A stretch of DNA of 53,953 bases. Origin: a virus. Its lineage: Duplodnaviria > Caudoviricetes. The stretch is taken from positions 1-53,953 of the IMG/VR virus record IMGVR_UViG_3300019135_000051; one strand, 5' to 3'. This document shows positions 1 to 15,476 of the stretch, one piece after another. The notes under the pieces were generated by a model. That model was not told the origin of the DNA and ran no database searches. It was given only the letters and a program-made list of their open reading frames with translations. The number at the start of each line of letters is the position of its first letter. Position 1 is the first letter of the stretch. The translations under genes and the position numbers were made by a program.

Positions 1-1140
1 CTAAAGTGACTTTGAGCGTTTTTGCTTCATCATTTTCTCGAAGTTGTCAGCTGCGTCTTTTTGCATGTCCGGTAATACATGGCTGTAAACGTCCATCGTG
101 ATGCCCACCCGACTATGCCCCAGGCGCTCGGAAACCACCTTGGGGTGTTCACCCAGCTGCAGGAGCATGGTGGCATGGGTGTGTCGCAGATCGTGGAAGC
201 GAATGTACGGCAAGCCACTCCTTTTGATGATCCGCTCGTAGTGCCGTAGCAAATTGCGGGGGTCCTGCGGCCGACCGTCATCATAACAGACCACAAGGTC
301 GTGATCCTGGTAACCCGCACCGTATTGTATGCGCAGCGCATTTTGCTTAGCTCGGTGAGACTTCAGTTCCTTGACAACGAACTGAGGGATGGCAATTCGC
401 CGTTTCGCGCTTTTAGTCTTCGGCTCCTGGAAGATGATCCCGGAATTTGCGGGACGATATAGAGTCTGTTGCACGCTGATCCGAGACTGCTCAAAGTCAA
501 CATCTTTCCAACGTAGACCTAGGATTTCCCCTCGGCGCATACCGGTATAAATGGCCAGTACAAAAGCGATGTAATACTTGTCGTCCTTGGCATAAGACAG
601 AAACTCGTTCGCCTGTTCCGCAGTCCAGGTAACGATTTCTTTCTGGATAAGACGGGGAGGATCAACGTGCTCCATGATGTTCTTGGGAACCAACTGCCAT
701 TTGACGGCCTGATTCAGGGCTTTGCTGAGCACGGAGTGCAGATACTTGATGTAATCAGCTGAAAGCCCCTCTTTTTGCAGCTCGGCCAAATACTTTGTGA
801 CGCGGAGCGGAGTCAGCTTGTCCAACTCGTGATGGCCAAGAGAGGGGATGAGTCTGCTCCTGACTGCAATCTCGTGGTTTGTATAGGTGGACTGGCGGAG
901 ATTGGTCTTTGCGTAGTTCTCTAACCAAAATTCCAGGTAGCTTGCCAAGGTTTGCTTTTTCGAAATGACGAGCTCACCGCGTTCAAACTGTGCAATCATC
1001 TCTGCACATGCAACCTCGGCCTCCTTTTTGGTTTTGAAACCGGAGCGTGTTATTTGCCGACGCTTTCCTGTCTCGGGATCGGTTCCGAGGGAGACTGCAA
1101 ACGACCAGGTGCTTCCGCGTTTTCTGAAGTGTCCCTTCAT
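1..1140 (-). CDS. int: Tyrosine integrase (ICEBs1/phage type with N-terminal arm-binding domain)
   Basis: TGMRRGE, RFHDLRHTHAT, ERLGH and YSHV catalytic motifs; N-terminal RSGFKTKKEA. Confidence 0.97.
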   Translation of the reverse strand: MKGHFRKRGSTWSFAVSLGTDPETGKRRQITRSGFKTKKEAEVACAEMIAQFERGELVISKKQTLASYLEFWLENYAKTNLRQSTYTNHEIAVRSRLIPSLGHHELDKLTPLRVTKYLAELQKEGLSADYIKYLHSVLSKALNQAVKWQLVPKNIMEHVDPPRLIQKEIVTWTAEQANEFLSYAKDDKYYIAFVLAIYTGMRRGEILGLRWKDVDFEQSRISVQQTLYRPANSGIIFQEPKTKSAKRRIAIPQFVVKELKSHRAKQNALRIQYGAGYQDHDLVVCYDDGRPQDPRNLLRHYERIIKRSGLPYIRFHDLRHTHATMLLQLGEHPKVVSERLGHSRVGITMDVYSHVLPDMQKDAADNFEKMMKQKRSKSL

Positions 1141-1219
1141 AGCATCCAATCCTTTCTGTAAATGATGGGAATATATGTTCGGTTTCAGGGCGAAAGAGAG
1201 CCCCGAAACGAAGAACCAA

Positions 1220-1651
1220 TCAGAACTTTTTCAAGTGGGCCACATCTCCCGGCACTCCATAAATGGCTGCTGCCTCACGGATTGTCATGCCAGAGTGTCG
1301 ATGTTCATGCAGAAGGCTGTCAGGAATCAACAGCTCAACCGCGAATTCGTTAGCCTCACGTTCGACTCGGTCGATGGACTGAAACGTATTCGCCCGCAGG
1401 AATGGCACGTTAACCTTGGGATGCAGGATGCGGTGTCCGAGCTCATGTGCGATGACGAACCTCTGCAGGTGTTCGTCCAGGTTACGGTTGACGTGAATCA
1501 TGGGTATACGCTTGCTGATGTTAAAGTAGCCCCAAATATTTTTGAAGTCTTCATACAAAATAAGAATGCCTTTCTGGCTCGTGATGGTCGCCGGGTCGTT
1601 GGTGCCGTGTCGCTTGACGAGCCGTTGCACGATCTGCTTAATAGGCTGCAT
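1220..1651 (-). CDS. ImmA/IrrE-family metallopeptidase (anti-repressor)
   Basis: AHELGH (HExxH) and EREANEFAVELL; lies between repressor and integrase. Confidence 0.93.
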   Translation of the reverse strand: MQPIKQIVQRLVKRHGTNDPATITSQKGILILYEDFKNIWGYFNISKRIPMIHVNRNLDEHLQRFVIAHELGHRILHPKVNVPFLRANTFQSIDRVEREANEFAVELLIPDSLLHEHRHSGMTIREAAAIYGVPGDVAHLKKF

Positions 1652-1671
1652 GTGTGCATCTCTCCAGCTCG

Positions 1672-2187
1672 TTATTTTCTATGTTTTTTCGGAGTGAACT
1701 TCTTCTTTGCCATCATCTTGGCAAGCCTGAGTGATTGCTCCAGAGAGGAGCGCAGCAACTCCATTTCTTCCTCGTCGATTGGCTCCCCATGGAAGGCGAG
1801 CGCCTGGTTGCTCTCCAGATCGGCCATGATGCGTTCCAGGTCTTTTACGATGTCGCGTTCTTCTTTAGATGTCAAAACAGTTTTAGGCTTAAGTTTTCGT
1901 TCCAGTTCTTTTTGTAGGTCCTCAAAAAATGACTCATCAGTGTAGCCGTCAGCATACATGTCGTCCGAAAGCATCAATACGCCTTCTGGGTGCGGCAATC
2001 CAAGTAAAAAGTCAACTGTGACCCCGTGAAATCGGGCTAGAGCCGCAAGCTTCGTGTGATCAGGATTGGAGATTCCGTTTTCCCAAGCATTGTAACGAGC
2101 GCGTTTAACGCCAATTGCTTCTGCAACTTGTTCTTGAGTAAGGCGTTTGTAATTCCTTAGTGCAGCAAGTCGTTGGCCCAAATTCAT
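1672..2187 (-). CDS. XRE-family HTH immunity repressor (ImmR/CI-like)
   Basis: LTQEQVAEAIGVKRARYNAWENG HTH; divergent from the cro-like gene. Confidence 0.93.
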   Translation of the reverse strand: MNLGQRLAALRNYKRLTQEQVAEAIGVKRARYNAWENGISNPDHTKLAALARFHGVTVDFLLGLPHPEGVLMLSDDMYADGYTDESFFEDLQKELERKLKPKTVLTSKEERDIVKDLERIMADLESNQALAFHGEPIDEEEMELLRSSLEQSLRLAKMMAKKKFTPKKHRK

Positions 2188-2236
2188 CGTAAAAACCGAC
2201 CTTTCCTCGTGTGGATAAAAAATTTATCAAACTCGC

Positions 2237-2265
2237 TTGACGATAAGATTTTTATCAAATATAAT
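2237..2265 (+). promoter_or_regulatory. sigma-A early lytic promoter
   Basis: TTGACG-17 bp-TATAAT, with an operator in the spacer. Confidence 0.88.
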
Positions 2266-2294
2266 CAGATTACGACAAGGAGGTGAATCGTGAG

Positions 2295-2513
2295 ATGGCA
2301 AAAAGACGGCAACAGCTAATCGAGTGCCGTGAAGCGAAAGGATCAAGAGATCAGGTTGCCTCGGAACTTGGCATTTCAAAGGTCTATCTTAGGATGATTG
2401 AAACAGGTGCTTTGAAACCTGGTCGCGACCTAATGATAAAAATGTCTGGCTTTTTTGAACAACCGCTCGATATACTTTTCCCAGACCTGTTTGAAGGAGA
2501 GAGGTCTAATTAA
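2295..2513 (+). CDS. Cro-like XRE HTH regulator
   Basis: SRDQVASELGISKVYLRMIETG HTH; RBS AAGGAGGTG. Confidence 0.88.
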   Translation: MAKRRQQLIECREAKGSRDQVASELGISKVYLRMIETGALKPGRDLMIKMSGFFEQPLDILFPDLFEGERSN

Positions 2514-2552
2514 GTGTGCTTACTATGATAAAATTATTATCGCTACGAAATG

Positions 2553-2581
2553 AGTATACTGGATAAAATTATTATCGTCAA
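2553..2581 (-). promoter_or_regulatory. Leftward sigma-A promoter reading antisense through cro toward the repressor
   Basis: Minus strand TTGACG-17 bp-TATACT, with operator 2562 in the spacer. Confidence 0.7.
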
Positions 2582-2644
2582 CATGGTTTTTCTTTTTTGT
2601 AGTGGCTGATAAGAATTTTATCAAAACCAAAGGAGGGGGACCTC

Positions 2645-2848
2645 ATGGAACAGACGCAGCCCATCCACAATGGTCTGCCAGCAATATTGACTGCTCAGGA
2701 CATAGCAAATTATCTCCGGATATCGGAGCGACGCGCCTATGAGCTTATGGACTTGAAATCATTCCCTCTGATCCGACTTGGTCGTTCCAAACGGGTGAAC
2801 AGAGATTCGTTTTTAAACTGGTTACAACAGAACGAAAGAAATGAGTAA
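2645..2848 (+). CDS. Excisionase-like HTH_17 protein
   Basis: ILTAQDIANYLRIS...FPLIRLGRSKRVNRDSFLNWL; RBS GGAGGGGG. Confidence 0.85.
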   Translation: MEQTQPIHNGLPAILTAQDIANYLRISERRAYELMDLKSFPLIRLGRSKRVNRDSFLNWLQQNERNE

Positions 2849-2850
2849 TC

Positions 2851-3123
2851 GTGATGGACAAACGCGCTATCTGGCTCGCGGTAAACTCCGCACACGGCGA
2901 CCGTCTTGTACAAATTGCCCAAGAGCATTGCCGTTTAGCTCGTGAGGTCGCCGCAAACGAATACCTTTCACACCAGGATAAGGAAACGTATAAGGCACGC
3001 ATCGAGCAGCTACGTAGGGAGCGGGATCAAATCCTTACACAGTTTGAAGAGGAGGTGAGCACGGATGGACAAGACCTGGAAACAGCGACAGATGGAAGTG
3101 CTGATGGCGAGCTTCGAGCATGA
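2851..3123 (+). CDS. Hypothetical phage protein
   Basis: ORF in the tightly packed early operon. Confidence 0.6.
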   Translation: MMDKRAIWLAVNSAHGDRLVQIAQEHCRLAREVAANEYLSHQDKETYKARIEQLRRERDQILTQFEEEVSTDGQDLETATDGSADGELRA

Positions 3124-3238
3124 GACGGCGTTGATGGCGTCATGGCCAGGAGGGAAGGAAGCAGCAGAGGGTTACGCTCAGCGCTTGCTGGCTTACGACA
3201 CAAAGCAAAAGGCAAGGGAAAAGGGGGAAAACCGGTGA
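3065..3238 (+). CDS. Small hypothetical protein (57 aa, MDKTWKQRQ...), absent from the ORF track
   Basis: RBS GGAGGTG; stop overlaps the next GTG start. Confidence 0.6.
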   Translation: MDKTWKQRQMEVLMASFEHETALMASWPGGKEAAEGYAQRLLAYDTKQKAREKGENR

Positions 3239-3483
3239 GGGCATACGGGTTCAGTGAAGCACAAAAGCGGATCGAGCGTTTGAAGAGGATTTACCGGATC
3301 ATGAAAGCGACCCATCCCCAGGACGGGACATGGGATTGGTGGATTAAAACAGAAATCACTGAGCTCAAACGAGAGATGGCCACTACTGCGAACAGTGACC
3401 ATTGGGCAACACGATTCCGAAAAGCGATTTCCCTTAGCGTATCACGATTATTGGTGTCGGGCAAGGAGGGGTCAACACTATGA
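3235..3483 (+). CDS. Hypothetical phage protein
   Basis: GTG start coupled to the upstream stop. Confidence 0.5.
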   Translation: MRAYGFSEAQKRIERLKRIYRIMKATHPQDGTWDWWIKTEITELKREMATTANSDHWATRFRKAISLSVSRLLVSGKEGSTL

Positions 3484-3656
3484 GCGCCTATAAAGAAATG
3501 GCGATTTCTGATCGAGAGGATCAAATTGTTGATATTTGCGACCAATGCTCGGGTGGCATACATAAAGGTCAACAGGTCTGGAAGGTCGGAAGCGAGATTT
3601 ACTGCTGCAGAGATTGCTTGCAAACCGGGTTGCAGATTGTGACGTTGCGGATTTGA
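3480..3656 (+). CDS. Small Zn-finger-like protein (58 aa; CDQC...YCCRDC), absent from the ORF track
   Basis: RBS AAGGAGGGG; two Cys clusters. Confidence 0.7.
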   Translation: MSAYKEMAISDREDQIVDICDQCSGGIHKGQQVWKVGSEIYCCRDCLQTGLQIVTLRI

Positions 3657-3721
3657 GTCGAAACCGGGGCCACGCCCCTGGTCGCAGGGAGCTGACCGTC
3701 CCTGCCTGATGAGACTGGTCA
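3656..3721 (+). ncRNA. Type II hammerhead ribozyme; predicted cleavage after GUC at 3683
   Basis: AGTC-GAAA-stem III-GTC-stem I (GCAGGGA/TCCCTGC)-CTGATGA-GACT; loop I TGACC can pair with 3' GGTCA. Confidence 0.9.
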
Positions 3722-3821
3722 TACATATGCGAGGCAAAGCGGGAGCGCCCGGGGAGGCGCACGGCTGTCGGAGAGGTAGGGCCGGCGGCGGCCTCGTGAC
3801 TAAACGGAAAGGAGGGATAAA

Positions 3822-4037
3822 TTGGAGTATTTAAAACTGGTGCATACGCAGGAAGAGCTTGAATCAGCGGACGATAATTGTCTTCTGGAACATTTCGGTG
3901 TCACTTGCATGCGATACGTGCACGGGGAGGTACCACACCGTTATGTGAATCAAGTGAAAACGATCATTCTTCAAAGGATTTCCAGATCAAAAGAAAAAGA
4001 CTCCGCGGCAACGGAGTCTCAAGCAAAGCACTTATAA
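3822..4037 (+). CDS. Hypothetical phage protein
   Basis: RBS AAGGAGG with TTG start. Confidence 0.65.
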   Translation: MEYLKLVHTQEELESADDNCLLEHFGVTCMRYVHGEVPHRYVNQVKTIILQRISRSKEKDSAATESQAKHL

Positions 4038-4085
4038 TTGCCTTCATTTTACAACTGTGGAGGCACAAACACAAGGAGGGTGCTC

Positions 4086-4550
4086 ATGAACATCACACTG
4101 AACATCGAAGCCGGCACTCCGGCTGAGCTGCAGGAAGCGATCGTCGGTTTGGCCGGTATCGTTGGATTCGTACAAGACGGCCCAGCGATCCAGCAGACGA
4201 AAAGCGATCAGGAAAAACCGAAACGTAATTCTCGCACGACAACCAAAACGGACAAGCCAACGGATTCTCAGCCAGACGATGAGGAGCAACAGTCCGCAGA
4301 GCAGATCTCTGAAACAGAAAAAGAGTCTGCAGAAGAAGTAACCAGCCATGAAACGGGAGATGGGCCAGGCGATAGTGAGGAACACATTCCGACTGTTGTG
4401 GAGCTGCGCGCTGCAGCACAGGAAAAAGGGAAAACGCCAGAGGGAAAACAGGCGATCAGGGAACTGCTTAACAAATTCGGCAGCAAATCAATTTCTGATG
4501 TTCCCGAGAAGAAGCGAGCGGCATTCCTTGCTGAGTTGGAGGCGCTATGA
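4086..4550 (+). CDS. Acidic hypothetical protein of the type found upstream of DUF2800 in PolA phage cassettes
   Basis: C-terminal PTVVELRAAAQ...IRELLNKFGSKSISDVPE; RBS AAGGAGG. Confidence 0.75.
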   Translation: MNITLNIEAGTPAELQEAIVGLAGIVGFVQDGPAIQQTKSDQEKPKRNSRTTTKTDKPTDSQPDDEEQQSAEQISETEKESAEEVTSHETGDGPGDSEEHIPTVVELRAAAQEKGKTPEGKQAIRELLNKFGSKSISDVPEKKRAAFLAELEAL

Positions 4551-5743
4551 CACAGCAGGCACACGCTGAGCGTGCTCACGCTTTACTCGGCGCTTCCAAG
4601 GCGGAGCAGTGGATCAACTGCCCACCGAGCGCCAGGCTACAGGAAAGCATCCCTGACAAGCGGAGCGAATACGCAGAAGAGGGCACGACGGCCCATGAGC
4701 TCGCGGAGATCAAACTCCGCCGCCGTTTAACCATCTGCAACGCTGCCGAACGGGAACGGCTTGATGAGGCGCTCCAGAAGGTAAAAGACAGCCCGCACTA
4801 CAGCACCGAAATGGAGAACGCCATTCAGGAGTACATCGAGCTGGTCGGGGAGCGCTTCATGGCCGCGAAGGCGAGATCAAGTGACGCAGTTGTGCTGCTG
4901 GAAGAACGCCTGGACTTCTCAGAGTGGGTCCCGGACGGGTACGGCACTGGTGACGTGGTACTGATCGCGGACGGTGTTCTGGAAGTGATTGACCTGAAAT
5001 ACGGAAAGGGTGTACCGGTGAGCGCTGTTGGCAATTCGCAGATGCGGTTATATGCTCTCGGTGCTTGGTCGGCTTACAGCTATCTGTACGACATCCGTGA
5101 AGTGATGATGACAATCGTACAGCCGCGTCTCGATAACGTCAGCACGGACTCAATACCGATCGACGAGCTGCTGGGTTGGGCAGAGGCCGTTGTCAAACCA
5201 GCAGCCGAGTTGGCTCACCGCGGCGAGGGGGGTTACAAGGCCGGCGATCACTGTCGTTGGTGCAAGGTGAAGGGCAACTGCAGGGCGAGGGCGGACGCCA
5301 ATTTGGCGGCGCTGGCTTACGAGTTTAAAGATCCGGCCCTAATGACGAACGAAGAAATTGGGTCGGTCCTGTTCATCACAGAACAACTCAAGACATGGGC
5401 GAAAGATGTGGAAGAATACGCCTTCGAGCAGGCCAAGGCCGGCAACAAGATCCCGCAGTGGAAACTCGTCGAGGGCCGCAGTAACCGGGCGATCACCGAC
5501 AAAGATGCGGCATTGGCTGCCCTGGAAGCGGCCAAGTTGGATCCGGATAAATACCTGAAGCCGCAGGAGCTGCTCGGTATCAGCGAGCTGGAGAAGCGCA
5601 TCGGCAAAAAAGAGCTGGCATCCTTGCTTGATGGCCTGATCATTAAACCGCCTGGTAAACCGGTACTTGTGCCTGAAACGGACAAGCGCCCGGAGCTAAA
5701 CAGCATTGAAGAAGAATTCGCAAATATCGATTTGGAGGATTGA
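4547..5743 (+). CDS. DUF2800 Cas4-like PD-(D/E)XK exonuclease
   Basis: HALLGAS...WINCPPS, GTGD, IDLKYGKG, QMRLYALG, HCRWCK. Confidence 0.9.
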   Translation: MTQQAHAERAHALLGASKAEQWINCPPSARLQESIPDKRSEYAEEGTTAHELAEIKLRRRLTICNAAERERLDEALQKVKDSPHYSTEMENAIQEYIELVGERFMAAKARSSDAVVLLEERLDFSEWVPDGYGTGDVVLIADGVLEVIDLKYGKGVPVSAVGNSQMRLYALGAWSAYSYLYDIREVMMTIVQPRLDNVSTDSIPIDELLGWAEAVVKPAAELAHRGEGGYKAGDHCRWCKVKGNCRARADANLAALAYEFKDPALMTNEEIGSVLFITEQLKTWAKDVEEYAFEQAKAGNKIPQWKLVEGRSNRAITDKDAALAALEAAKLDPDKYLKPQELLGISELEKRIGKKELASLLDGLIIKPPGKPVLVPETDKRPELNSIEEEFANIDLED

Positions 5744-5749
5744 TTCTGA

Positions 5750-6346
5750 ATGGCAATCGACAATACCGTAACAAAAGTGATCACTGGTAAGGTACGCCTC
5801 TCGTATGTCCACGTTTTTGAGCCGCAAAAAGATGACCAAGGAAACGACAAATACAGCACGGCCATCCTCATCCCGAAGTCCGATAAGGAGACACTCCGAA
5901 AAATCAAGGCAGCTGTAGATGCAGCCATCGAGCTCGGCAAAAGCAAATGGGGAGGCAAGGTTCCTCCGAACCTGAAAAAGCCGCTGCGCGACGGCGACGC
6001 GGAGCGTCCGGACGACGAGGCATATGCCGGTCACTTCTTCCTGAATGCGACCAGCAAGAACAAGCCCGGAATCGCCAAACCAATCGGCAAAGGCCCTGAC
6101 GGCAAACCAAAGTTTCAAGAAATCACGGACAGCACCGAAGTGTACAGCGGGTGCTATGCCAAAGTGAGTCTGAACTTTTACCCATTTGACGCTAAGGGGA
6201 ACCGCGGAGTGGCAGCTGGACTTAACAACATTGTGAAGGTACAGGATGGTGAGTTCCTGGGCGGCCGCGCAAGCATCAACGATGAATTTGCCGATGAGGA
6301 ATTCGACGACCTTGGTGATGGGGACGAGGACGATTTTCTCAGCTAG
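5750..6346 (+). CDS. DUF2815 / gp2.5-like single-stranded DNA-binding protein
   Basis: VRLSYVHVFEP, PLRDGD, VYSGCY, GVAAGLNNI and acidic tail. Confidence 0.92.
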   Translation: MAIDNTVTKVITGKVRLSYVHVFEPQKDDQGNDKYSTAILIPKSDKETLRKIKAAVDAAIELGKSKWGGKVPPNLKKPLRDGDAERPDDEAYAGHFFLNATSKNKPGIAKPIGKGPDGKPKFQEITDSTEVYSGCYAKVSLNFYPFDAKGNRGVAAGLNNIVKVQDGEFLGGRASINDEFADEEFDDLGDGDEDDFLS

Positions 6347-6422
6347 TGCACAACTACCAAGGGGGATTCGGCAGCGGGTCCCCTTTCATTTCAAACAAAT
6401 TCCGGGAGAGGGAGGTATTGCG

Positions 6423-6719
6423 TTGAAGACGGACGGGGTGCTTTTAACACCAGCTATTCTGAGCGTTATGGAAGAGCGGAAACGACAGGACGACAAGTGG
6501 GGCGAGCAAAATCATGAGCCAACCGTATGGCTTGGCATTTTGGGGGAAGAGTTCGGGGAACTTTGTCAGGCGGTAAACGAAACGTGGTTTGACAATGGGC
6601 CGGAGGAACGCAAAAAGGGTGGTTACGAAAACGTGCGAGCGGAGGCGGTGCAGGTCGCGGCCGTGGCGGTCTCCCTAATCGAATGTCTGGATCGCCGGCA
6701 TGGTGGGGAATCTTCATGA
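6423..6719 (+). CDS. MazG-like nucleotide pyrophosphohydrolase
   Basis: ERKRQDDKWGEQNH...LGEEFGEL...EAVQVAAVA. Confidence 0.8.
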   Translation: MKTDGVLLTPAILSVMEERKRQDDKWGEQNHEPTVWLGILGEEFGELCQAVNETWFDNGPEERKKGGYENVRAEAVQVAAVAVSLIECLDRRHGGESS

Positions 6720-8677
6720 CCGTCCTCCAAATCGACCTTGAGACATACAGCAGCGTTGATTTGACCAAGTGCGGTGTGTATCGGTACGTTGAAGCCCCAG
6801 ATTTTGAAATTCTGCTTTTCGCGTACGCCTATGATGACGAACCTGTACAGGTTATCGACCTGACAGCCTTTGAGGATCTTCCGGAGCGGGTCCGGCATGA
6901 CCTGACCAATCCCGCCGTGATCAAAACAGCCTACAATGCCAACTTCGAGCGGACCTGTATCTCCAAGCACTTCGGGATTGAGTGCGACCCTCTCCAGTGG
7001 CGCTGCACAGCCGTCCATGCACTCGCGCTGGGGCTGCCCGGCTATCTGGAAGGCGTTGCAGAAGTATTAAAGCTTGAAGCCCAGAAGGACGCGCGCGGTA
7101 AAAACTTGATCAAATATTTCTCCGTTCCGTGCAAGCCAACAAAAGCGAATGACGGGAGGACACGTAACTATCCGTACCATGATCCAGAGAAATGGGAGCA
7201 ATACAAAGAATACAACCGGCAGGACGTCGTCGTGGAACGGGAGGTCCGCCGGAAGCTGGAACGGTTCCCATTGCCGGACCATGAGTGGAAGCTGTGGGCG
7301 TTGGACCAGCGGATCAATGACCGAGGCGTCCGGCTCGATCCGGTTCTATTCCGACAAGCGATCGCTTGCGATGAGCAGTACGAGGCCCGGCTGGTGGCCG
7401 AGGCAAAAGAGATCACGGGATTAGACAACCCGAACAGTCTTCAGCAGCTCAAGGAGTGGCTGGCAGAGCGCGGACTGGAGACACCCGATGGCCTCTCCAA
7501 AGAGCATATGCCAGTCTTGCTCGACCGAGCGCCGGACGATGAGACACGACGTGTCTTGGAGCTGCGGCAGGAGATGAGCAAGACCAGCGTCGACAAGTAT
7601 AACGCAATGGAGCGCAGCATGTGTGCTGATGAGAGAGCCAGAGGGCTGCTCCAGTTCTGCGGAGCAAACCGCACCTGGCGATGGGCCGGGCGGATAATCC
7701 AGGTACAGAACTTGCCACAAAACAAAATTGAGGATCTGGCCATGGCGCGAGAGACACTCCGGAACGGCGATTTCGAAATGTTGGAGCTGATGTTCGGGCC
7801 TCCTCCTTTTGTACTCTCCCAATTGATCCGGACGGCGTTCATCCCGTCCCGGGGCTGCAGGTTCATCGTGTCAGACTTCGCGGCCATTGAAGCCCGCGTC
7901 ATTGCCTGGCTGGCAAACGAGCACTGGGTGCTTGATGTGTTCCGTGGGCACGGCAAGATCTACGAAGCCACGGCCGCGCAGATGTTCAAGGTCCCTTTCG
8001 AGACGATCACAAAAGGCCATGCAAACTATCAGTTGCGGGCGAAGGGGAAAGTGGCCACACTCGCCTGCGGATACCAGGGCGGACCGAATGCTTTGATTGC
8101 CATGGGAGCACTCAAGAGCGGGATTTCAGAGGAAGAACTACCGGCACTGGTTAAGCAGTGGCGAGAGGCCAACCCGAATATCGTCAACCTGTGGTACGCC
8201 GCAGAAGATGCTGCAGTTACCGCTGTGCGCGAGAAAACGACCGTCAAGTTGGCTCATGGAGTCCAGTACCGGTATGCCCCCGGAGTATTGTTCGCCGACC
8301 TGCCCAGTGGTCGCAGCTTGGCGTACGTCAACCCGCGGATCAAGCCTGATCCGAAATTCGGTAAGGACGGTCTCGTGTTCGACGGCATGGATCAAGTGAA
8401 GAAGAAGTGGATGTCTCACCGGACATACGGCGGCCGGCTGGTGGAGAACCTTGTTCAGGCAATCGCCCGGGATTGTTTGGCCGAGAGCTTGATGCGACTG
8501 GATTCGGAAGGATACAAGATCGTGATGCATGTACACGATGAAGTTGTACTTGATGTGTCGGTCGGGATTGGATCTGTGGAAAAGGTAGTGGAAATAATGG
8601 GACGCCCAATTGTATGGGCGCCAGGGTTACCGCTGAGTGCTGCCGGTTTTGAGTGCAATTTTTACATGAAGGATTAA
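6716..8677 (+). CDS. Family A DNA polymerase (phage)
   Basis: IDLETYS exonuclease motif, DFAAIEARV (motif A), RAKGKVATLACGYQ (motif B), HVHDE (motif C). Confidence 0.96.
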   Translation: MTVLQIDLETYSSVDLTKCGVYRYVEAPDFEILLFAYAYDDEPVQVIDLTAFEDLPERVRHDLTNPAVIKTAYNANFERTCISKHFGIECDPLQWRCTAVHALALGLPGYLEGVAEVLKLEAQKDARGKNLIKYFSVPCKPTKANDGRTRNYPYHDPEKWEQYKEYNRQDVVVEREVRRKLERFPLPDHEWKLWALDQRINDRGVRLDPVLFRQAIACDEQYEARLVAEAKEITGLDNPNSLQQLKEWLAERGLETPDGLSKEHMPVLLDRAPDDETRRVLELRQEMSKTSVDKYNAMERSMCADERARGLLQFCGANRTWRWAGRIIQVQNLPQNKIEDLAMARETLRNGDFEMLELMFGPPPFVLSQLIRTAFIPSRGCRFIVSDFAAIEARVIAWLANEHWVLDVFRGHGKIYEATAAQMFKVPFETITKGHANYQLRAKGKVATLACGYQGGPNALIAMGALKSGISEEELPALVKQWREANPNIVNLWYAAEDAAVTAVREKTTVKLAHGVQYRYAPGVLFADLPSGRSLAYVNPRIKPDPKFGKDGLVFDGMDQVKKKWMSHRTYGGRLVENLVQAIARDCLAESLMRLDSEGYKIVMHVHDEVVLDVSVGIGSVEKVVEIMGRPIVWAPGLPLSAAGFECNFYMKD

Positions 8678-9552
8678 ATATTATATTCTCGCCCGGCACG
8701 GTGTAATAATGCTTCAACTAGGTGTCTGAGGCGTCTGACGGTTACTTGATCTAAGTTTATATCATTATTTCTCAGGACCCTAATACAGTGATTTATCAAA
8801 TCAAATAAGTTTACAGCTGTATCGGACTCAAGATTAGATAGGTATTCCATAACAGTAATGTCCAAAATATTAAGCATGCGGGGGCTCAATGTAGTTTTAT
8901 CGCTATCCGTTCCTGAAAAATTGGCTGACAAATTATTGATAGAACGTAACTGTGCAGATTTTAACGCAGCTATATCAGTCTGCATCTCCGTTAGCTGATT
9001 AACAATAAGGTCGAACGGCATCACTTCAGTTTGATCAAGTTTAGCGACTTTAAATTCACCAAAACTCTTAAGAAAGGGGGAATGGTTCGGATCTTTTTCG
9101 GCATCTTCTAATGTTGCAATGGTTTTTCTAACTAGAGTGTTTTTAAACTCTACGATTCTTGTAAATCTGAGGTCTCTTGGATATTCAATATGCTCTATTC
9201 CTCCAGTATCAAATGAATAGTTTGTTTTATCGTCTTTGATTATGATTGTTGGTTTATCAAAAGCCAGGCGCATACCTAATTCGAACATAACATTTGGGTT
9301 CTTGCAGCTTACATCACAGATAACAATATCGGAATTGTAGAGACCCTGAACAATCCTTTTGTGGATTAACCCACTACTATCAGAGTCACTTACCAATCGA
9401 GTTTCGAAGTGGTAATGGTCATTCGAAGAAAGTGCATCAGTAATGATTGACTTTACTTCTAACCAATGTTCGGGTCCGCAGTTATCAATTTGTGCTATTG
9501 GCATAACTAATCCAACATGAACTTTCTTGGTTTCCTTAATCTCAATAACCAT
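8674..9552 (-). CDS. AT-rich moron: nucleoside 2-deoxyribosyltransferase-like (NDT-type) domain protein
   Basis: VMPI...SDIVICDVSCKNPNVMFELGMRLAFDKPTIII; own extended -10 TGGTATAAT at 9585-9593 (minus strand). Confidence 0.75.
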   Translation of the reverse strand: MVIEIKETKKVHVGLVMPIAQIDNCGPEHWLEVKSIITDALSSNDHYHFETRLVSDSDSSGLIHKRIVQGLYNSDIVICDVSCKNPNVMFELGMRLAFDKPTIIIKDDKTNYSFDTGGIEHIEYPRDLRFTRIVEFKNTLVRKTIATLEDAEKDPNHSPFLKSFGEFKVAKLDQTEVMPFDLIVNQLTEMQTDIAALKSAQLRSINNLSANFSGTDSDKTTLSPRMLNILDITVMEYLSNLESDTAVNLFDLINHCIRVLRNNDINLDQVTVRRLRHLVEALLHRAGREYNI

Positions 9553-9622
9553 TGTAGCCCCCTGTTTACACAATTATTAGGAACATTATACCAATTGTGA
9601 GGGACAAAAGTAAGGAGAGGAT

Positions 9623-10003
9623 ATGATGAAAAACGCAGCAGTGAAAATAAAAACGGAGATGTGCAGTAACAAAAACAACTCTTATATCCAGGTAATCGGA
9701 GATTTCTTGCTCCGGCACCTTGAGGCCAATCCGGACTGCGCAGAGAAGATCCTGGCTACCGACAAGACGATCGTTAAAAGTCTTGACGCCATGAAGAACG
9801 AGGCCCGGAAAAAACAGCACAACGGTATGGCCATGCTCACCGATGCGGAGGGCTTCGCAATTGTGCTGAAATATTTCGGTATTGAGGGCGTGCCTGTCGC
9901 TGCGGATGCGCCGGCAGCACCGGTATCAGCGCCAGTCGCTACCGCCCCTGTGAAAAAGCCTGTTGCAGTCGATTTCGACGTCAAGCTCGAAGACTTTCTA
10001 TGA
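9623..10003 (+). CDS. PcfK-like protein (family including AcrIIA9)
   Basis: AEKILATDKTIVKSLDAMKNEARKK...LTDAEGFAIVLKYF; immediately upstream of pcfJ. Confidence 0.7.
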   Translation: MMKNAAVKIKTEMCSNKNNSYIQVIGDFLLRHLEANPDCAEKILATDKTIVKSLDAMKNEARKKQHNGMAMLTDAEGFAIVLKYFGIEGVPVAADAPAAPVSAPVATAPVKKPVAVDFDVKLEDFL

Positions 10004-10018
10004 GGGAGATGAAGATGT

Positions 10019-11599
10019 ATGGACCTGAAACAGTTTTCAGCTCATTTCCCTGAGAAACAAAGTCCGGAATTCGTCTCATTTGTGGAGAACGTGGCCATGC
10101 TGTCAAGCCGCTACATATTCACCTGCCGGAAAGGCAAGAAACAATATGGTTATTGCACGCATTGCAAGGCCGAATTTGAGACGCCGGGGATCCGCCACAA
10201 TGAGTTTTATGTCTGCCCGTCATGCGAATCCCACTGCGGCGTGCGCGCCAGCGGGAAGGGCCGCAAGCAGATGGTCGATGAGGCCTACGTAGTGTGGTAC
10301 GAAAAGTCGCTGGTCAATCCGGATGCGATTACCGCTCGCGGTGTGCTAGTTGTGAGGGATTATCGAGGAGACTATCGGGATGTGCCCACACATATCTCAG
10401 TCCGTGCTGAGTACCTGTTTGAGCCAGGAAAAAGCTTGATGCTGGACCATCCATATCTTTACTACAGCTTGTCCTACGGCGAAATGAGAAACGGGAGCTC
10501 GGTTTACTTCCGAAACAGTGTATTCTCTTTGGCCAATGGCGTCATGGCCAAGAAGCGATTATATTGCTCAGTCGATAGCATCGAAGCTGCTGTCCAAGGA
10601 ACGCCGTTCCGGTACAGCACCTGGGAGAATTATAAACACGACGATATGGTTGAATTCTTCGATCTTTTCGCAAAGTACCCGTGCATCGAATACCTCACGA
10701 AGATGGGGATGCGCGGGCTGGTTGAGGCAAAACTGGCGGGGGATAAAACATACGGAATGATCAACTGGCGCGCAAAGAACCCGCAGAAGGTTTTGAAAAT
10801 GACCAAGCAGGAGATAAACGAACTCCGCGACACGGGAGTCCGGGTGGATCCTTGGCTGTTGTATCTCAAGCATTTGTCCAAAAATGACGGCTCCAAACTA
10901 TCTTTCGAAGAACTGGCAAGGATCCATGCTGACATCTCCGAAGAGTGGCTTCCCGATCTTAGCAAGGTGCTTGAACGCACAACTCTACGCAAAGCATACG
11001 CCTATCTGGGTAAGCAACTTGGGAAGTCAGACGTCTCTCGGCGACATCGCAACAAGGGTCAATTGCTGTCTACCTGGAACGATTACATTGCGGATTGCCT
11101 GCGACTGGGGCTCGATATCACAAGGGAGGCTGTACTTTTTCCCACGAATCTATATCGGGCTCATCAGAACACAATCAAACAGATCAAGGTGAAAGAGGAT
11201 GAGAAGCTGAGAGCCCAATTTGCATCTAGAGGCAAAGCACTTGAAAAGTTGAGGTTTGAAGCACTTGGATTTCTCCTTCGACCTGTTTCCGATCAGAACG
11301 AGCTCATCGAAGAGGGGAAGGCGCTGCATCATTGCGTAGGAACCTACGCGCCGCGTTACGCCAAGGGGGAGACGGATCTGCTTCTCTTGCGTAAAGTGGA
11401 CGAGCCTGACAAGCCCTTTTACACGATGGAGATCCGCAACGGATCGATTGCCCAGTGCAGAGGGCTGAATAATTGCTCACCGACTGCAGAGGTTCAAGCC
11501 TTCATTGATCTTTTCGTCTCCAAAAAACTGCTGACCAAAAAGCGAACGCGTGTTGACGTGACCGCCCTTCAACAAAACAGACAGGAGGTAGCTGTATGA
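10019..11599 (+). CDS. PcfJ-domain protein
   Basis: N-terminal CTHC/CPSC; C-terminal LIEEGKALHHCVGTY...PFYTMEI...QCRGLNN. Confidence 0.88.
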   Translation: MDLKQFSAHFPEKQSPEFVSFVENVAMLSSRYIFTCRKGKKQYGYCTHCKAEFETPGIRHNEFYVCPSCESHCGVRASGKGRKQMVDEAYVVWYEKSLVNPDAITARGVLVVRDYRGDYRDVPTHISVRAEYLFEPGKSLMLDHPYLYYSLSYGEMRNGSSVYFRNSVFSLANGVMAKKRLYCSVDSIEAAVQGTPFRYSTWENYKHDDMVEFFDLFAKYPCIEYLTKMGMRGLVEAKLAGDKTYGMINWRAKNPQKVLKMTKQEINELRDTGVRVDPWLLYLKHLSKNDGSKLSFEELARIHADISEEWLPDLSKVLERTTLRKAYAYLGKQLGKSDVSRRHRNKGQLLSTWNDYIADCLRLGLDITREAVLFPTNLYRAHQNTIKQIKVKEDEKLRAQFASRGKALEKLRFEALGFLLRPVSDQNELIEEGKALHHCVGTYAPRYAKGETDLLLLRKVDEPDKPFYTMEIRNGSIAQCRGLNNCSPTAEVQAFIDLFVSKKLLTKKRTRVDVTALQQNRQEVAV

Positions 11600-12438
11600 G
11601 TGAATTGGTACGGACCGCGCAGGTGATCGCGGCCGAGATCCGCAGCATTGACACACAGACCAGAGAGATCGTTTTGCGGAGTGCGATTGAGATCGGTAAG
11701 CGCCTGAATGAAGCAAAAGAACTGGTGCCACACGGTGAATGGAGAGCCTGGTTGGAGTCAAATGTCCATTACAGCCAATCCACCGCGAACAACTTCATGC
11801 GAATCGCAGAGGAGTACGGATCAAATTACCAAGCGATTGAGAATTTAAGCTACACCAAGGCGCTGGCTCTTCTCGGCGTTCCGGAGGAGGAACGGGAGCA
11901 GTTCGCCCAGGAACATGACGTCGAAAATATGTCGGCGCGCGAGCTGCAGCAAGCGATCAAGGAGAAGAAGCGGTTGGAGAAGGAGTTGAAAAAGGTCCAG
12001 CAGGCTGCCGAGAAGGAACGCAAGGAGCGTGTAGAACTTCAAAAACAAGTCGCCGAACTGCAAGACAAGCTGTTCGATGCGGAAATCGACGGAAATGAAG
12101 ATGAGGTCCAAAAGCTTGAAAATGAACTGAAAGCGGCTCAGGAAAAGGTGAAGCAGTTGGAGAAGGAGCTGCGGGAAAAACCGATCGATGTGCCTGCGGT
12201 TGTGGAGAAAGTCCCGGAGGAAGTAGAGAAGGAACTGGCCGAGCTTCGGAAGAAGGCATCCCAGTCAGGGAACGAAACGGCGATAAAGTTCAAGGTTCAG
12301 TTCGAGGGACTTGCTGCGGGGTTCCGGGATCTGTTGGCCACTCTGGCGGAGATTGAGGCTGCTGATCAGGAAACATATAAAAAATACAAAGGTGCAGTGC
12401 TTGGGCTAATCGGCAAGATGTCAGAGAGGCTTAACTAA
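11596..12438 (+). CDS. DUF3102-domain coiled-coil protein
   Basis: IEIGKRLNEAKELVPHGEWRAWLE...STANNFMRIAEEY. Confidence 0.88.
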   Translation: MSELVRTAQVIAAEIRSIDTQTREIVLRSAIEIGKRLNEAKELVPHGEWRAWLESNVHYSQSTANNFMRIAEEYGSNYQAIENLSYTKALALLGVPEEEREQFAQEHDVENMSARELQQAIKEKKRLEKELKKVQQAAEKERKERVELQKQVAELQDKLFDAEIDGNEDEVQKLENELKAAQEKVKQLEKELREKPIDVPAVVEKVPEEVEKELAELRKKASQSGNETAIKFKVQFEGLAAGFRDLLATLAEIEAADQETYKKYKGAVLGLIGKMSERLN

Positions 12439-12587
12439 TCGGTAATGCAGGAAAGGGGAACGAAAAATGTACTGCTATGATGAAAATGGCACGCTGCTGG
12501 GGCTTGGCAGGACTCAGCGTAGGGCTACTTCTTGGCTGGCTGATCTGGGCTTAACACAACACACGATTTGTTAAGAGGGGGATAACC

Positions 12588-12797
12588 ATGTGGCCAATGC
12601 ATTCAGCGAATGGACTTAAAAGAGGCGAGCGCGTAAAGCATGTGAAAAGTAATCGCAGTAAGTGGAATCACCTGGTTAATGGGGTCATCGAGGATATTTC
12701 CATGACAGCGGAAAGTGTTTACGTGCGGTGGTATGACAGCGACGGAAAGAAAATTCATTGGGCGAAATACAAATGCGAAATGATCGAGAAAATCTGA
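12588..12797 (+). CDS. Small hypothetical protein
   Basis: RBS GAGGGGG; 69 aa. Confidence 0.6.
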   Translation: MWPMHSANGLKRGERVKHVKSNRSKWNHLVNGVIEDISMTAESVYVRWYDSDGKKIHWAKYKCEMIEKI

Positions 12798-12937
12798 CTT
12801 AACAAAACATTACACGTGAAAATAAAAAAGCCTCATAACTGAGACACGCTTTACTTATTATTTTTGGTTATTATCGGCCCATTTAGCAACAGATTGTACG
12901 CTGTCGCTAAATGCTGCACTTTTGCAGAGGTCACTGC

Positions 12938-13024
12938 TTACCTAAGCGCAAACACTGCAAAGGTAAAGCACAATGCAAAAATGGTGACACAGAAACCTAA
13001 AAAGGCTAGACTTTGCTTTCCCAT
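12938..13024 (-). CDS. 28-aa hydrophobic peptide MGKQSLAFLGFCVTIFALCFTFAVFALR, absent from the ORF track
   Basis: Strong RBS AAGGAGGTGG; upstream TTGACA-18-TAATTT on the minus strand. Confidence 0.6.
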   Translation of the reverse strand: MGKQSLAFLGFCVTIFALCFTFAVFALR

Positions 13025-13118
13025 TCCAAACCACCTCCTTCTTCTTACTTGGTGGTTGAAACACACAATAAATTACCATTTTTTTATGTAGATTGTCAAA
13101 TTGAAAGGGTGAACCTTC

Positions 13119-15476
13119 ATGCTTGACCAGGACATCGAACTTGATATCTCTTTCGGCAAACACCGGGCCGACATGAACTGGAAGCCGGAGTACCTCACCT
13201 GGAACGAGTTCGTTGGCCGTCTGCAGAAGGTGCGCCGAACGTCCGAAACGATGGCCCAGTACGACAAGATGACCGTGGTCGGGAAAGGAAAGGTTAAGGA
13301 TGGGCCCGCCTTTGTTGGCGGGCTTATCCGGGGCGGACGGCGGAAGAAGGAGAACGTCGACACCCGCAGCCTGATCACGCTGGATGCCGACTTTGCGGAC
13401 GATGATTTCCTCTTCACCACAGAGCTCGTCCTGGGCGGACGGGCCTACGTCGTCTACTCGACCCACAGTCACCGTCCGTACAAGCAGAAATACCGCCTCA
13501 TCGCGCCAGCTGATCGCACCATGAGTCCAGACGAGTACGCGGCGGTTAGCCGGCGGATCGCCGAGCAGATCGGTATGCATTACTTCGACAAAACGACCTT
13601 TCAGGTTCATCGTCTGATGTATCTGCCCAGCTGCTCTGCCGATGCGGAGCCCGTGCTGAACATTTATGAGGGCGGCCCAATCTGCGTTGATGACATCTTG
13701 GCCGAGTACGATGACTGGCGGGACGTAATGAGCTGGCCGCGGCATCCGGAAGAGAAGAAGGCGATTCGGACGTCCGCCAATAAGGCACAGGACCCGCGGG
13801 AAAAGTTTGGCACGATCGGGCTGTTCTGTCGGGCGTTTTCGATTGATGAGGGCATCGACACGTTCTTGTCAGATGTGTACGTTCCCGGCTCCATGCCGAA
13901 CCGGTACACCTACATTCACGGTTCGTCAGCCAACGGCTTGGAAATCTATCCAGATCAGGAGCTTGCCTACTCCCACCAAGACAGCGACCCGGTGGCTGAC
14001 GGGCGCACATATAACCTGTTCGATCTTGTGCGGGTCCACAAATTCGGCCATCTGGATGAACGAGTGAAAGAGCATACGCCTGATACCAAGAAGCCAAGCC
14101 ATCTGGCAATGGAACAATGGGCGATTCAGCTCCCGGAGGTCAAGCGGCTCGCAGCAGCGGAGCGTCAAGCGGATTTCGGGGAGATGGCCAAAGAATTCGA
14201 TGAAGATGACGATCCGGAGGATGACAGCTGGACGGAGAAATTGGAGCGACATCGCAAGACCAGTGAAATCTTACCTACGGCTGAAAACGTGGAACTGCTC
14301 CTCACTCACGGCCCCTGGCGCGGCGTTCTCGCCTATGACGCCTTTGGGAATACGGAAGTGATCCGGAAGCCGCTGCCGTGGCGTGGCCGCGAACGGCCAG
14401 GGCGAACTTATGAGCCATGGCTGGCGGCGGACGACAAACGGCTGCAACACTGGTTTGCCAAAGTCCACAAAATCACCTCAGCTAAAATCATCCAGAACGC
14501 TTTCACTGAAGTGGTCCATAAAAACACCTTTCACCCGATCAAGTCCTATCTGGAAAGCACCGTTTGGGACGGCGTGCCGCGGGCGGAGAGGATCTTCCCC
14601 GTATACCTAGGGGCACCTGATACGCATTACGTCCGACAGGTGACGCGGAAAATGCTGCTGGCGGCAGTCACCCGGCTGTACCGGCCAGGCTGCAAGTTTG
14701 ACCAAATGCTGGTCCTCGTTGGCCCGCAGGGGGCCGGCAAGAGCAGCCTGCTGGCGAAGCTGGGGCGGGAATGGTTCAGCGACTCGCTGAGGACGTTCGA
14801 GAACAAGGAGGCGGGGGAGCATCTGCAGAGCGGCTGGATCTTTGAGATCGGAGAGCTATCAGCCATGAAGAAGTCCGAGGTCGAAGAGGTCAAAGCGTTC
14901 TTGTCCAAGACGGAGGATCGCTACCGGGTGGCCTACGACCGGCAGGTGTCGGAATTCCCGCGAAAATGCGTATTTTTCGGCACGACCAACACCCGCGACT
15001 TCCTGCGGGACGCCACGGGAAACCGCCGCTTTTGGCCGGTTGAGGTGGATCCGGAGAAGGCGGAGCTGAGCCACTGGACGCACTTGACGGATGAAGTGGT
15101 GAGCCAAATCTGGGCGGAGGTTTTGTGCTGGTTCAAGGCGGGGGAAACCTTGGAGCTGGATCAGGAAGCCAGGACGGAAGCTGAGCGCCAACAAGCGGCA
15201 CACATGGAGAGCGATCCGCGCGAAGGGCTTATTCAGGAATGGCTCGATACGCCGATCGAGGACGAATGGGCGGACGGCCCATCAGACCAGTTGCGGCAGC
15301 GCGTCTGTGCTGCCCAGATATGGGTGGAGTGCCTAGGAAATAAAAAGGGGTCCATGCGTCCATGGGAGGCCAAGGAAATTTTGGACATCCTGCGCCGCAT
15401 ACCCGGCTGGGAAGAGAGAAAAAAGAGAGCGCGGGTAGCTGGATACGGATTGCAAACCGTCTTTGAACGGGTTTAG
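13119..15476 (+). CDS. VapE/VirE-family primase-helicase
   Basis: LDAD and YSTHSH primase-like motifs; Walker A GPQGAGKS; GTTN...TGNRRFWPV. Confidence 0.92.
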   Translation: MLDQDIELDISFGKHRADMNWKPEYLTWNEFVGRLQKVRRTSETMAQYDKMTVVGKGKVKDGPAFVGGLIRGGRRKKENVDTRSLITLDADFADDDFLFTTELVLGGRAYVVYSTHSHRPYKQKYRLIAPADRTMSPDEYAAVSRRIAEQIGMHYFDKTTFQVHRLMYLPSCSADAEPVLNIYEGGPICVDDILAEYDDWRDVMSWPRHPEEKKAIRTSANKAQDPREKFGTIGLFCRAFSIDEGIDTFLSDVYVPGSMPNRYTYIHGSSANGLEIYPDQELAYSHQDSDPVADGRTYNLFDLVRVHKFGHLDERVKEHTPDTKKPSHLAMEQWAIQLPEVKRLAAAERQADFGEMAKEFDEDDDPEDDSWTEKLERHRKTSEILPTAENVELLLTHGPWRGVLAYDAFGNTEVIRKPLPWRGRERPGRTYEPWLAADDKRLQHWFAKVHKITSAKIIQNAFTEVVHKNTFHPIKSYLESTVWDGVPRAERIFPVYLGAPDTHYVRQVTRKMLLAAVTRLYRPGCKFDQMLVLVGPQGAGKSSLLAKLGREWFSDSLRTFENKEAGEHLQSGWIFEIGELSAMKKSEVEEVKAFLSKTEDRYRVAYDRQVSEFPRKCVFFGTTNTRDFLRDATGNRRFWPVEVDPEKAELSHWTHLTDEVVSQIWAEVLCWFKAGETLELDQEARTEAERQQAAHMESDPREGLIQEWLDTPIEDEWADGPSDQLRQRVCAAQIWVECLGNKKGSMRPWEAKEILDILRRIPGWEERKKRARVAGYGLQTVFERV

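Follow-up and report, generated by a model that had tools for sequence, protein, structure and literature searches.

A type II hammerhead ribozyme as the first part of a conserved RNA cassette

Analysis of the window, which is the whole 53,953-nucleotide (nt) IMG/VR provirus IMGVR_UViG_3300019135_000051, revealed a type II hammerhead ribozyme on the plus strand at positions 3656–3721, between the regulatory and the replication genes of the early region (Table 1). The motif has a complete core, three helices and a pseudoknot of 5 base pairs (bp), and the first-pass annotation that had called it agrees with our reading at every coordinate; judged from its sequence, the hammerhead is very probably competent. 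That annotation took the ribozyme as a stand-alone element, whereas the conserved RNA cassette to which it belongs has several parts, the ribozyme being the first. Reading the locus as a whole, we consider it probable that the ribozyme is an intercistronic processing and insulation site. The roles of bacterial and phage hammerheads are still described as an open question (PMC6155905; this and the other papers cited by PMC number are drawn on in part). The locus offers a handle on that question, with a fixed partner, namely a covarying leader akin to a small RNA (sRNA) of the host that has been listed as Hfq-associated, and a natural substitute flanked by the same neighbouring genes. The pairing of hammerhead and leader, the replacement of the ribozyme in its slot and the strand of the BsrC structure lift the locus above a routine ribozyme match.

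Analysis of the motif indicated a type II topology, in which loops close stems I and III and stem II opens to the flanks. The conserved core is formed by CUGAUGA (3706–3712) and GAA (3660–3662), with C3683 at position 17 (H, not G). The core-adjacent pairs are all Watson-Crick, comprising A3663–U3682 (15.1–16.1), which closes stem III, G3713–C3659 (10.1–11.1) and G3684–C3705 (1.1–2.1). In the tertiary contact that aligns stems I and II, loop I pairs with the bases directly following stem II, giving a pseudoknot of 5 bp (at least 4 bp required). The minimum free energy (MFE) structure of 3650–3725 consists of the three hammerhead helices (-29.2 kcal/mol, z-score -2.0). The end of the predicted 5' product folds as the stem III hairpin (-12.2 kcal/mol), and the stem I hairpin folds from the first base of the predicted 3' product. 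The predicted cleavage would give 3683 a 2',3'-cyclic phosphate and G3684 a 5'-OH. As had been annotated, the ribozyme begins at the upstream stop codon, with which it shares one base, the last of the codon; the label of that upstream open reading frame (ORF) as a Zn-finger gene is supported only in part, its product being Cys-rich and without a Pfam or PHROG match.

Covariation was assessed in an alignment of 29 distinct copies, with the tested structure written from the window. In this alignment, 94.1% of cells are paired and 14 of the 22 pairs changed on both sides, a result that none of 500 shuffles reached, these controls ignoring kinship among the sequences; with the register slid by 1–3 columns, only 28–47% of cells are paired. 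Pairing is complete (100% of cells) in stems I and III, with covariation at 4 of 6 and 5 of 7 pairs, respectively, the changes in stem III falling on both sides. The pseudoknot is paired in 92.4% of cells, 3 of its 5 pairs changed on both sides, and its variants include GACC/GGUC, GGCC/GGCC, AACC/GGUU and GAUC/GAUC. The G-C, U-A and C-G pairs of stem II are kept in 29/29 copies (U-A is replaced by C-G in three), and the fourth pair, A3656–U3716, occurs in the window only, which has a stem II of 4 bp against 3 bp in the closest relatives. Among the core-adjacent pairs, AU and CG are each found in 29/29 copies and 1.1–2.1 is always paired. Because the helices and the pseudoknot covary in 29 copies, the hammerhead belongs to a conserved and structurally constrained family.

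The only match in the phage collection was Brevibacillus phage Emery (169 nt, 82% identity, between gp73 and gp74), where similarity at the DNA level spans the ribozyme and the next ~100 nt and does not extend into the flanking coding sequence. Scanning viral contigs and species-representative genomes for the pattern yielded further copies, including B. laterosporus, B. fulvus and one Saccharibacteria metagenome-assembled genome (MAG). We further searched 61 genomes of the B. laterosporus family, assembled by database family grouping from the named seed locus L020 of B. laterosporus and referred to below as the Brevibacillaceae set. At E ≤ 0.01, the Rfam model Hammerhead_II (RF02276) matched 21 places in 13 of these genomes, with 8/61 genomes above the Rfam cut-off, and some genomes carry two or three copies within 1.5 kb. 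In the relatives, the hammerhead begins at, or a few bases from, the upstream stop codon.

Several variants were observed among these copies. In L032, L036, L042 and L043 (the same places as L046, L060 and L052; e.g., L042:1501–1600), a 26-nt insert sits between the CUGA(C/G)GA box and the stem II 3' strand GAC, an unusual spot in the core. The insert forms two small hairpins, the first being CCGC-loop-GCGG and the second covarying as AUCGG/CCGAU, AUCGG/CUGAU and AUCAG/CUGAU, and these loci still score 30–36 bits with RF02276. Three type II hammerheads lie within 1.4 kb on one contig (L027/L037/L044, G059:C62) and two within 0.8 kb on another (L029/L040, G008:C1), which is the multi-ribozyme arrangement described in 2011. 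These copies represent a different subfamily, with GCC/GGC in stem II or an extra U after CUGAUGA, and no junction RNA accompanies them. The Saccharibacteria MAG contig (L022, 2966–3030) carries a type II hammerhead whose stem I is identical to that of the window and whose pseudoknot has changed on both strands (GAUC/GAUC); its presence in so distant a host lineage points to dissemination by mobile elements.

Match to the family model and relation to known hammerheads

The covariance-model (CM) search with Hammerhead_II that accompanied the first-pass call as its check, a missing hit being the outcome to count against it, returned a full-length match: RF02276 aligns with 3656–3723 over model positions 1–66 of 66, with 31.8 bits and an E-value of 3.1e-6 for the 54-kb record. 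The score lies below the gathering score of 37, and relatives of the same architecture reach 38–52 bits; the shortfall is one of score only, with no structural feature missing. The bare descriptor CGAAA..GTC..CTGATGA is expected 0.08 times per window and was matched in 8 of 100 shuffles. A cmscan run against Rfam found no hammerhead in the window at the gathering threshold, nor at E ≤ 10 on 3500–3900 (401 nt), where it listed a 29.7-bit BsrC match yet not the 31.8-bit RF02276 match. Since the same tool reports RF02276 for four relatives (40–52 bits) and the direct RF02276 search matched the window, the blank reflects filter loss and is not counter-evidence. The standard Rfam scan lost this ribozyme to its speed filters, and such a blank is an unsafe negative for short ribozymes. 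The sub-threshold score and the match dropped by the filters would suit a chance or decayed hammerhead-like sequence without activity, but this explanation is exceedingly improbable in view of the complete core, the E-value, the conservation of the motif where the flanking DNA is not conserved, and the covariation of all helices and the pseudoknot.

Perreault et al. 2011 (PMC3088659) described type II hammerheads that have this pseudoknot and lie close to integrases, between the genes of prophages. According to the same authors, the hammerheads of prophages flank genes and cut long transcripts in vitro, and rapid cleavage depends on the pseudoknot. The first-pass identification of the motif as a type II hammerhead with this pseudoknot agrees with this source and is supported by the full-length CM match and the covariation. 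The window copy resembles the RF02276 type II hammerheads in its permuted topology, its core, the kind of pseudoknot and its prophage habitat near an integrase and between genes, and differs from them in its lower score and in being single rather than clustered. It is also fused head to tail with a second conserved RNA, an arrangement that the consulted part of PMC3088659 does not mention. The ribozyme is thus another member of a family known since 2011 and not a new kind.

A search of the literature found no hammerhead ribozyme in Brevibacillus, and Dataset S1 of Perreault et al. may already include the present ones. Among the matches listed for prophage or bacteriophage hammerheads from 2012 on, there was no functional study of a phage hammerhead, and PMC10651486, as far as its available text goes, concerns an engineered hammerhead only. 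The pairing of a hammerhead with a BsrC-like leader, a natural replacement of a hammerhead and the strand of the BsrC structure were not found in print, supplements not being covered. No match to the Hatchet ribozyme (RF02678) was present in the window at E ≤ 10. Weinberg, in 2015, is said to have described ribozymes near ribozymes.

A BsrC-like three-way-junction RNA follows the ribozyme

Over the ~80 nt that follow, conservation equals that of the ribozyme, and in 26 copies this stretch forms a three-way junction (alignments A3 and A4). Helices P2 and P3 are paired in 96–98% of cells, with covariation at 4 of 5 and 5 of 8 pairs, respectively, and none of 500 shuffles reaches this score. The closing helix P1 and its alternative P1' share their 3' strand and are mutually exclusive; each is ~91–99% paired and neither changed on both sides. 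Loop 2 contains a near-invariant GGA, conceivably a CsrA site, and loop 3 reads AGAGGU(U/A)GGG. R1, a model built from phage-type copies only, gave a single match in the window (85.2 bits, E 1e-22) and, at ≥48 bits, 48 places in 31 of the 61 Brevibacillaceae genomes. Among 151 sampled Bacilli genomes, strong R1 matches were confined to four, all also in the Brevibacillaceae set. Five related loci searched against Rfam at E ≤ 0.1 gave no family except Hammerhead_II. The junction RNA was also considered as a put-like antiterminator, and this candidate was dropped for want of a terminator-like site on the plus strand within 2200–10800.

Weak R1 matches occur once per genome at 26–36 bits, and 9 of the 10 places examined carry the Rfam family BsrC (RF01410, 76–88 bits) on the opposite strand. 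Reciprocally, RF01410 matches the window at 3714–3782 on the minus strand (29.7 bits, model positions 20–87). By the cut-off of 38 bits on the strand of the model, the window copy falls outside BsrC; by fold, it goes with chromosomal BsrC, nine places of which are matched by R1 on the strand opposite to RF01410. On the R1 strand, P2 and P3 of the chromosomal copies are 100% paired in an alignment fitted to the model. Judged from sequence and pairing, we take the junction RNA to be a phage copy of the fold of the chromosomal BsrC locus. The phage copy and BsrC (RF01410; B. subtilis ydaG-ydaH) share two hairpins, the GGA of loop 2, AGAGGUAGGG in loop 3 and a UCACA..GG joining stretch. The phage copy differs in having an extra closing helix, in lacking a U-tract after P3, and in lying within an mRNA leader rather than forming a separate gene: instead of ending as a stand-alone gene does, with a hairpin and a U-tract, it runs into the closing helix and the ribosome-binding site (RBS).

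RF01410 is present in 58 of the 151 sampled Bacilli genomes. In P3 on the R1 strand, 30 chromosomal loci (240 cells) show 187 Watson-Crick pairs, 48 G-U, 2 A-C and 3 others. Since the 48 G-U pairs would become mismatches on the strand of the Rfam model, the conserved BsrC structure belongs to the other strand, and the family appears to be modelled in Rfam on the strand without the structure. The observation on strand was made at the chromosomal loci L076–L083, L085 and L089–L118. A U-rich tail follows directly after P3 in the chromosomal copies, with GUUUU in most of the 30. A cold-shock protein gene on the same strand lies ~190 nt downstream of the chromosomal BsrC-fold RNA in two Brevibacillaceae genomes, a placement not seen in B. 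laterosporus. The discovery of BsrC is said to be due to Saito in 2009.

In B. subtilis, bsrC lies in the ydaG-ydaH spacer (PMC2784878) and tops a table of putative sRNAs co-purifying with Hfq (ratio 53.6; PMC3574147), and Hfq of this species recognises (AG)3A (PMC3287200). AGAGAG is present in loop 3 of most chromosomal copies and of 8/26 phage copies; most of the other phage copies, that of the window among them, have AGAG. Hfq is encoded in all three Brevibacillaceae genomes examined and not in the prophage. The link between Hfq and the junction RNA is a lead, not a result.

These features bear on the main rival to a role in processing and insulation, namely that the job of the ribozyme is to free the junction RNA from translated upstream RNA rather than to set mRNA half-lives. 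Once freed, the RNA could bind Hfq or another partner and exert control over the downstream ORF, or else it could serve as a decoy for the partner of the host RNA. The junction RNA is an independent and strongly covarying unit, it occurs without a hammerhead in 19 of the 30 loci surveyed below, and it also exists as a stand-alone chromosomal gene. Its kinship with BsrC by reciprocal model matches, the loop 10-mer AGAGGUAGGG common to phage and chromosomal copies, the place of bsrC at the head of the co-purification table, the resemblance of loop 3 to the motif bound by Hfq and the presence of Hfq in the hosts would all fit such a role. Against this, the junction RNA would still be 37 nt from the 5' end after cleavage and has no 3' boundary of its own, with no terminator before the RBS. 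Moreover, the Hfq link is taken from B. subtilis, the strand of the co-purified RNA is not visible in the available part of PMC3574147, and the full (AG)3 is present in fewer than a third of the phage copies (8/26). We consider this explanation rather unlikely, both for the release itself and for the functions proposed for the freed RNA; it is compatible with processing and insulation, from which it differs in emphasis.

A second element takes the place of the hammerhead

The slot directly upstream of the junction RNA was surveyed at 30 loci with a strong junction-RNA match, one per genome. It is occupied by the hammerhead in 11, by an element that we call module B in 16 and by something else in 3. 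Module B (L048, L051, L056–L059, L062, L063, L066–L068 and L070–L074) is ~70–110 nt long, ends just before the junction RNA and consists of GCGGGCUUCGGCCCUGC, a variable covarying hairpin and GGAGGUUCGAACCUCC; 14 of the 16 instances were found by pattern, L068 and L072 by inspection. Like the hammerhead, it fills the stretch from the upstream stop codon to just short of AUACAUA, with which the junction RNA opens. Comparison of the flanking genes revealed that both elements occur in the same surroundings. An upstream ORF ending in ..REQARRLLK goes with the hammerhead in L049, L065 and L069 and with module B in L058 and L068. Homologous Cys-rich ORFs precede the hammerhead in the window, L046, L047, L052 and L054 and module B in L070, and a downstream 40-amino-acid (aa) CxxC ORF and a 118-aa ORF are found with either element. 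The presence of an unrelated second element in this slot suggests that what matters is the function of the slot rather than the hammerhead as such.

Module B from nine loci had no Rfam match at E ≤ 0.1. Despite its T-arm-like hairpins, the element was rejected as a tRNA or tmRNA, since ARAGORN found none in 18 loci. RNAalifold preferred one long imperfect rod over three local hairpins, and the rod is supported by one compensatory change (L072), which is too little to decide between the two structures. If modelled correctly, the rod would suit a double-strand-specific nuclease, and module B is a candidate nuclease site or undescribed ribozyme. In three viral contigs (L006, L007 and L019), the hammerhead is followed not by the junction RNA but by an RBS with a very short frame and then, ~95 nt after the hammerhead, by a module-B-like element; as seen in these contigs, the two can stand in tandem.

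A terminal hairpin and the extent of the cassette

The hairpin at 3998–4019 of the window (-12.8 kcal/mol, z-score -3.4) recurs in the related loci. Of 32 sources examined, 24 have a hairpin between AAAGAC and GAGUCU, 136–574 nt downstream of the junction RNA. In the window and 23 related loci (alignment A6), it stands after the stop codon of the small ORF in some and inside the ORF end in others, with differing frames. Its conservation is therefore at the nucleotide level. The pattern consists of AAAGAC, a stem, a CNGNAA-type loop, the second strand of the stem and GAGUCU, in long and short versions, often with a C-A mismatch adjoining GAC/GUC; the hairpin gives unrelated small proteins a common ..KD(P/S)A.. 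tail.

We tentatively propose a wider view of the locus, in which the hammerhead would be one of at least two interchangeable 5'-processing modules that Brevibacillus prophages set ahead of a phage-borne version of BsrC, the fold listed as Hfq-associated; the other would be module B, perhaps as an RNase III-type rod or an undescribed ribozyme. The processing element, the BsrC-like leader, a small variable ORF and the terminal hairpin would together form a portable expression cassette, with the BsrC structure on the strand opposite to that of Rfam. If so, the phage hammerheads here would exist to hand a mimic of a host sRNA a clean 5' context. A cassette of this kind might instead be selfish, the ribozyme serving its spread or RNA circularisation and not the expression of the phage. 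The RNA elements are conserved, unlike the variable ORF that separates the junction RNA from the hairpin, and bacterial hammerheads flank small non-conserved ORFs according to a review (PMC6155905). The window, however, has no second ribozyme to release a unit-length RNA, and neither repeats nor a recombinase were tied to the cassette, which makes a selfish element quite improbable.

Proposed role in processing the early transcript

As a processing and insulation site, the hammerhead would cut the early rightward transcript at C3683/G3684 without a host nuclease. The upstream RNA would carry the cro-like, xis-like, small and Cys-rich ORFs and end 27 nt past the last stop codon, its 3' end being formed by the stem III hairpin and bearing a 2',3'-cyclic phosphate. 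In the downstream RNA, the 5'-OH would coincide exactly with the base of the 7-bp stem I hairpin, and this RNA would run via the BsrC-like leader to the RBS, the TTG start codon at 3822 and the replication genes. Both products would be hairpin-capped, since stem III ends the 5' product and stem I opens the 3' product. Cutting would uncouple the fates of the two halves of the operon and give the leader a fixed, hairpin-capped 5' end, and the function of the slot would accordingly be processing or insulation just ahead of the leader. Terminal hairpins hinder 3' exonucleases and RNase J1, the 5' exonuclease of Bacillus-type hosts. RNase J1 and the 5'-OH product of glmS were reportedly the subject of work by Collins in 2007. 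The earlier proposal that cleavage separates the regulatory from the replication mRNA and alters their stability is reasonable, and we infer that cleavage would take place in vivo and influence stability or translation.

Some observations weigh against this role. The z-scores of the product hairpins (-1.2 to -1.4) and of the whole motif (-2.0) are a modest single-sequence signal, and the RF02276 score is below the gathering score. The RF02276 search of the window found one ribozyme only, so that, unlike in the published multi-hammerhead arrangements, there is no gene with a ribozyme on either side, and the predicted effects on stability draw on general knowledge of terminal hairpins and RNase J1.

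Cleavage might also be conditional. By covering stems II and III, a terminating ribosome would tie cleavage to the translation of the upstream ORF; alternatively, the pseudoknot tail would be in competition with the folding of the adjacent leader. Across the relatives, the stop codon repeatedly overlaps or nearly abuts stem II, and position 3721 is both the end of the pseudoknot strand and the start of the junction-RNA model. Tight packing is nevertheless common in phage genomes, no alternative pairing that disables the ribozyme was found, and the MFE structure of 3650–3725 is the active fold; conditional cleavage is accordingly improbable.

Processing and insulation of this kind have counterparts elsewhere. 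The early genes of phage T7 have RNase III processing hairpins between cistrons. The hammerhead resembles them in cutting between cistrons of a long early transcript and in yielding hairpin-ended mRNAs, and differs in needing no host enzyme and in leaving 2',3'-cyclic phosphate and 5'-OH ends; the likeness is functional, not familial. RiboJ is an engineered insulator built on a plant satellite ribozyme of another topology. It shares with the present locus a self-cleaving hammerhead, a structured spacer before the RBS and a fixed downstream 5' end, whereas the arrangement in the window is natural and its spacer is an 81-nt conserved fold.

Genomic setting in the prophage

The prophage is of Brevibacillus type. 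The plus-strand promoter-like site, the regulatory genes, the ribozyme and the replication genes follow in this order, and no terminator-like site was found on the plus strand within 2200–10800. The annotated placement of the ribozyme inside an early lytic operon, between the regulatory and the replication genes, is therefore fair.

Table 1. Features of the window around the hammerhead ribozyme and the junction RNA
Feature	Position	Strand	Remarks
Integrase	1–1149	-	
ImmA-type metalloprotease	1220–1651	-	
XRE repressor	1672–2187	-	
Promoter-like site TTGACG-17-TATAAT	2237–2265	+	Likely early rightward start; 11/12 sigma-70-like consensus matches, best plus-strand site in 1–14000; consensus match only
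cro-like HTH_3 gene	from 2283	+	
HTH_17 xis-like gene	from 2645	+	Followed by three small ORFs, then the ribozyme
58-aa Cys-rich ORF (CxxC ... CCxxC)	3480–3656	+	Stop TGA 3654–3656 overlaps first ribozyme base
Type II hammerhead ribozyme	3656–3721	+	Whole motif including pseudoknot tail; sequence reading, fold, CM match, covariation
Stem II, 5' strand AGUC	3656–3659	+	Pairs with GACU 3713–3716
Core G12 A13 A14 and A15.1 (GAAA)	3660–3663	+	Invariant among 29 aligned relatives
Stem III hairpin, loop CCACGC	3664–3681	+	6 bp, 3664–3669 with 3676–3681, one G-U
GUC triplet	3681–3683	+	Predicted scissile bond C3683/G3684, placed by hammerhead consensus
Stem I hairpin, loop GCUGACCG	3684–3705	+	7 perfect bp, 3684–3690 with 3699–3705
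Pseudoknot, loop I strand UGACC	3693–3697	+	Complementary to GGUCA
Core C3 U4 G5 A6 U7 G8 A9 (CUGAUGA)	3706–3712	+	Invariant among 29 aligned relatives
Stem II, 3' strand GACU	3713–3716	+	Partner of AGUC 3656–3659
Pseudoknot, 3' tail strand GGUCA	3717–3721	+	5 bp with 3693–3697
Three-way-junction RNA, BsrC-like fold	3721–3801	+	Conserved; R1 model, covariation, centroid fold
Junction RNA P1	3730–3735 with 3791–3796	+	Alternative P1' 3740–3743 with 3792–3796
Junction RNA P2, loop CGGGGA	3745–3749 with 3756–3760	+	
Junction RNA P3, loop AGAGGUAGGG	3764–3771 with 3782–3789	+	
Shine-Dalgarno GGAGG of downstream ORF	3811–3815	+	
71-aa ORF, TTG start	3822–4037	+	First after RNA elements; resembles start of Emery gp74
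Conserved hairpin, 8 bp, loop CGGCAA	3998–4019	+	Flanks AAAAG and GAGUCU; inside end of 71-aa ORF
DUF2800/PD-(D/E)XK nuclease	from 4547	+	Two small ORFs between ribozyme and nuclease
Enc34-type ssDNA-binding protein	from 5750	+	
DNA polymerase	from 6683	+	

The 71-aa ORF at 3822–4037 had no family match in Pfam or PHROG. A purine-rich RBS is located at a similar distance after the junction RNA in all rows of alignment A3.

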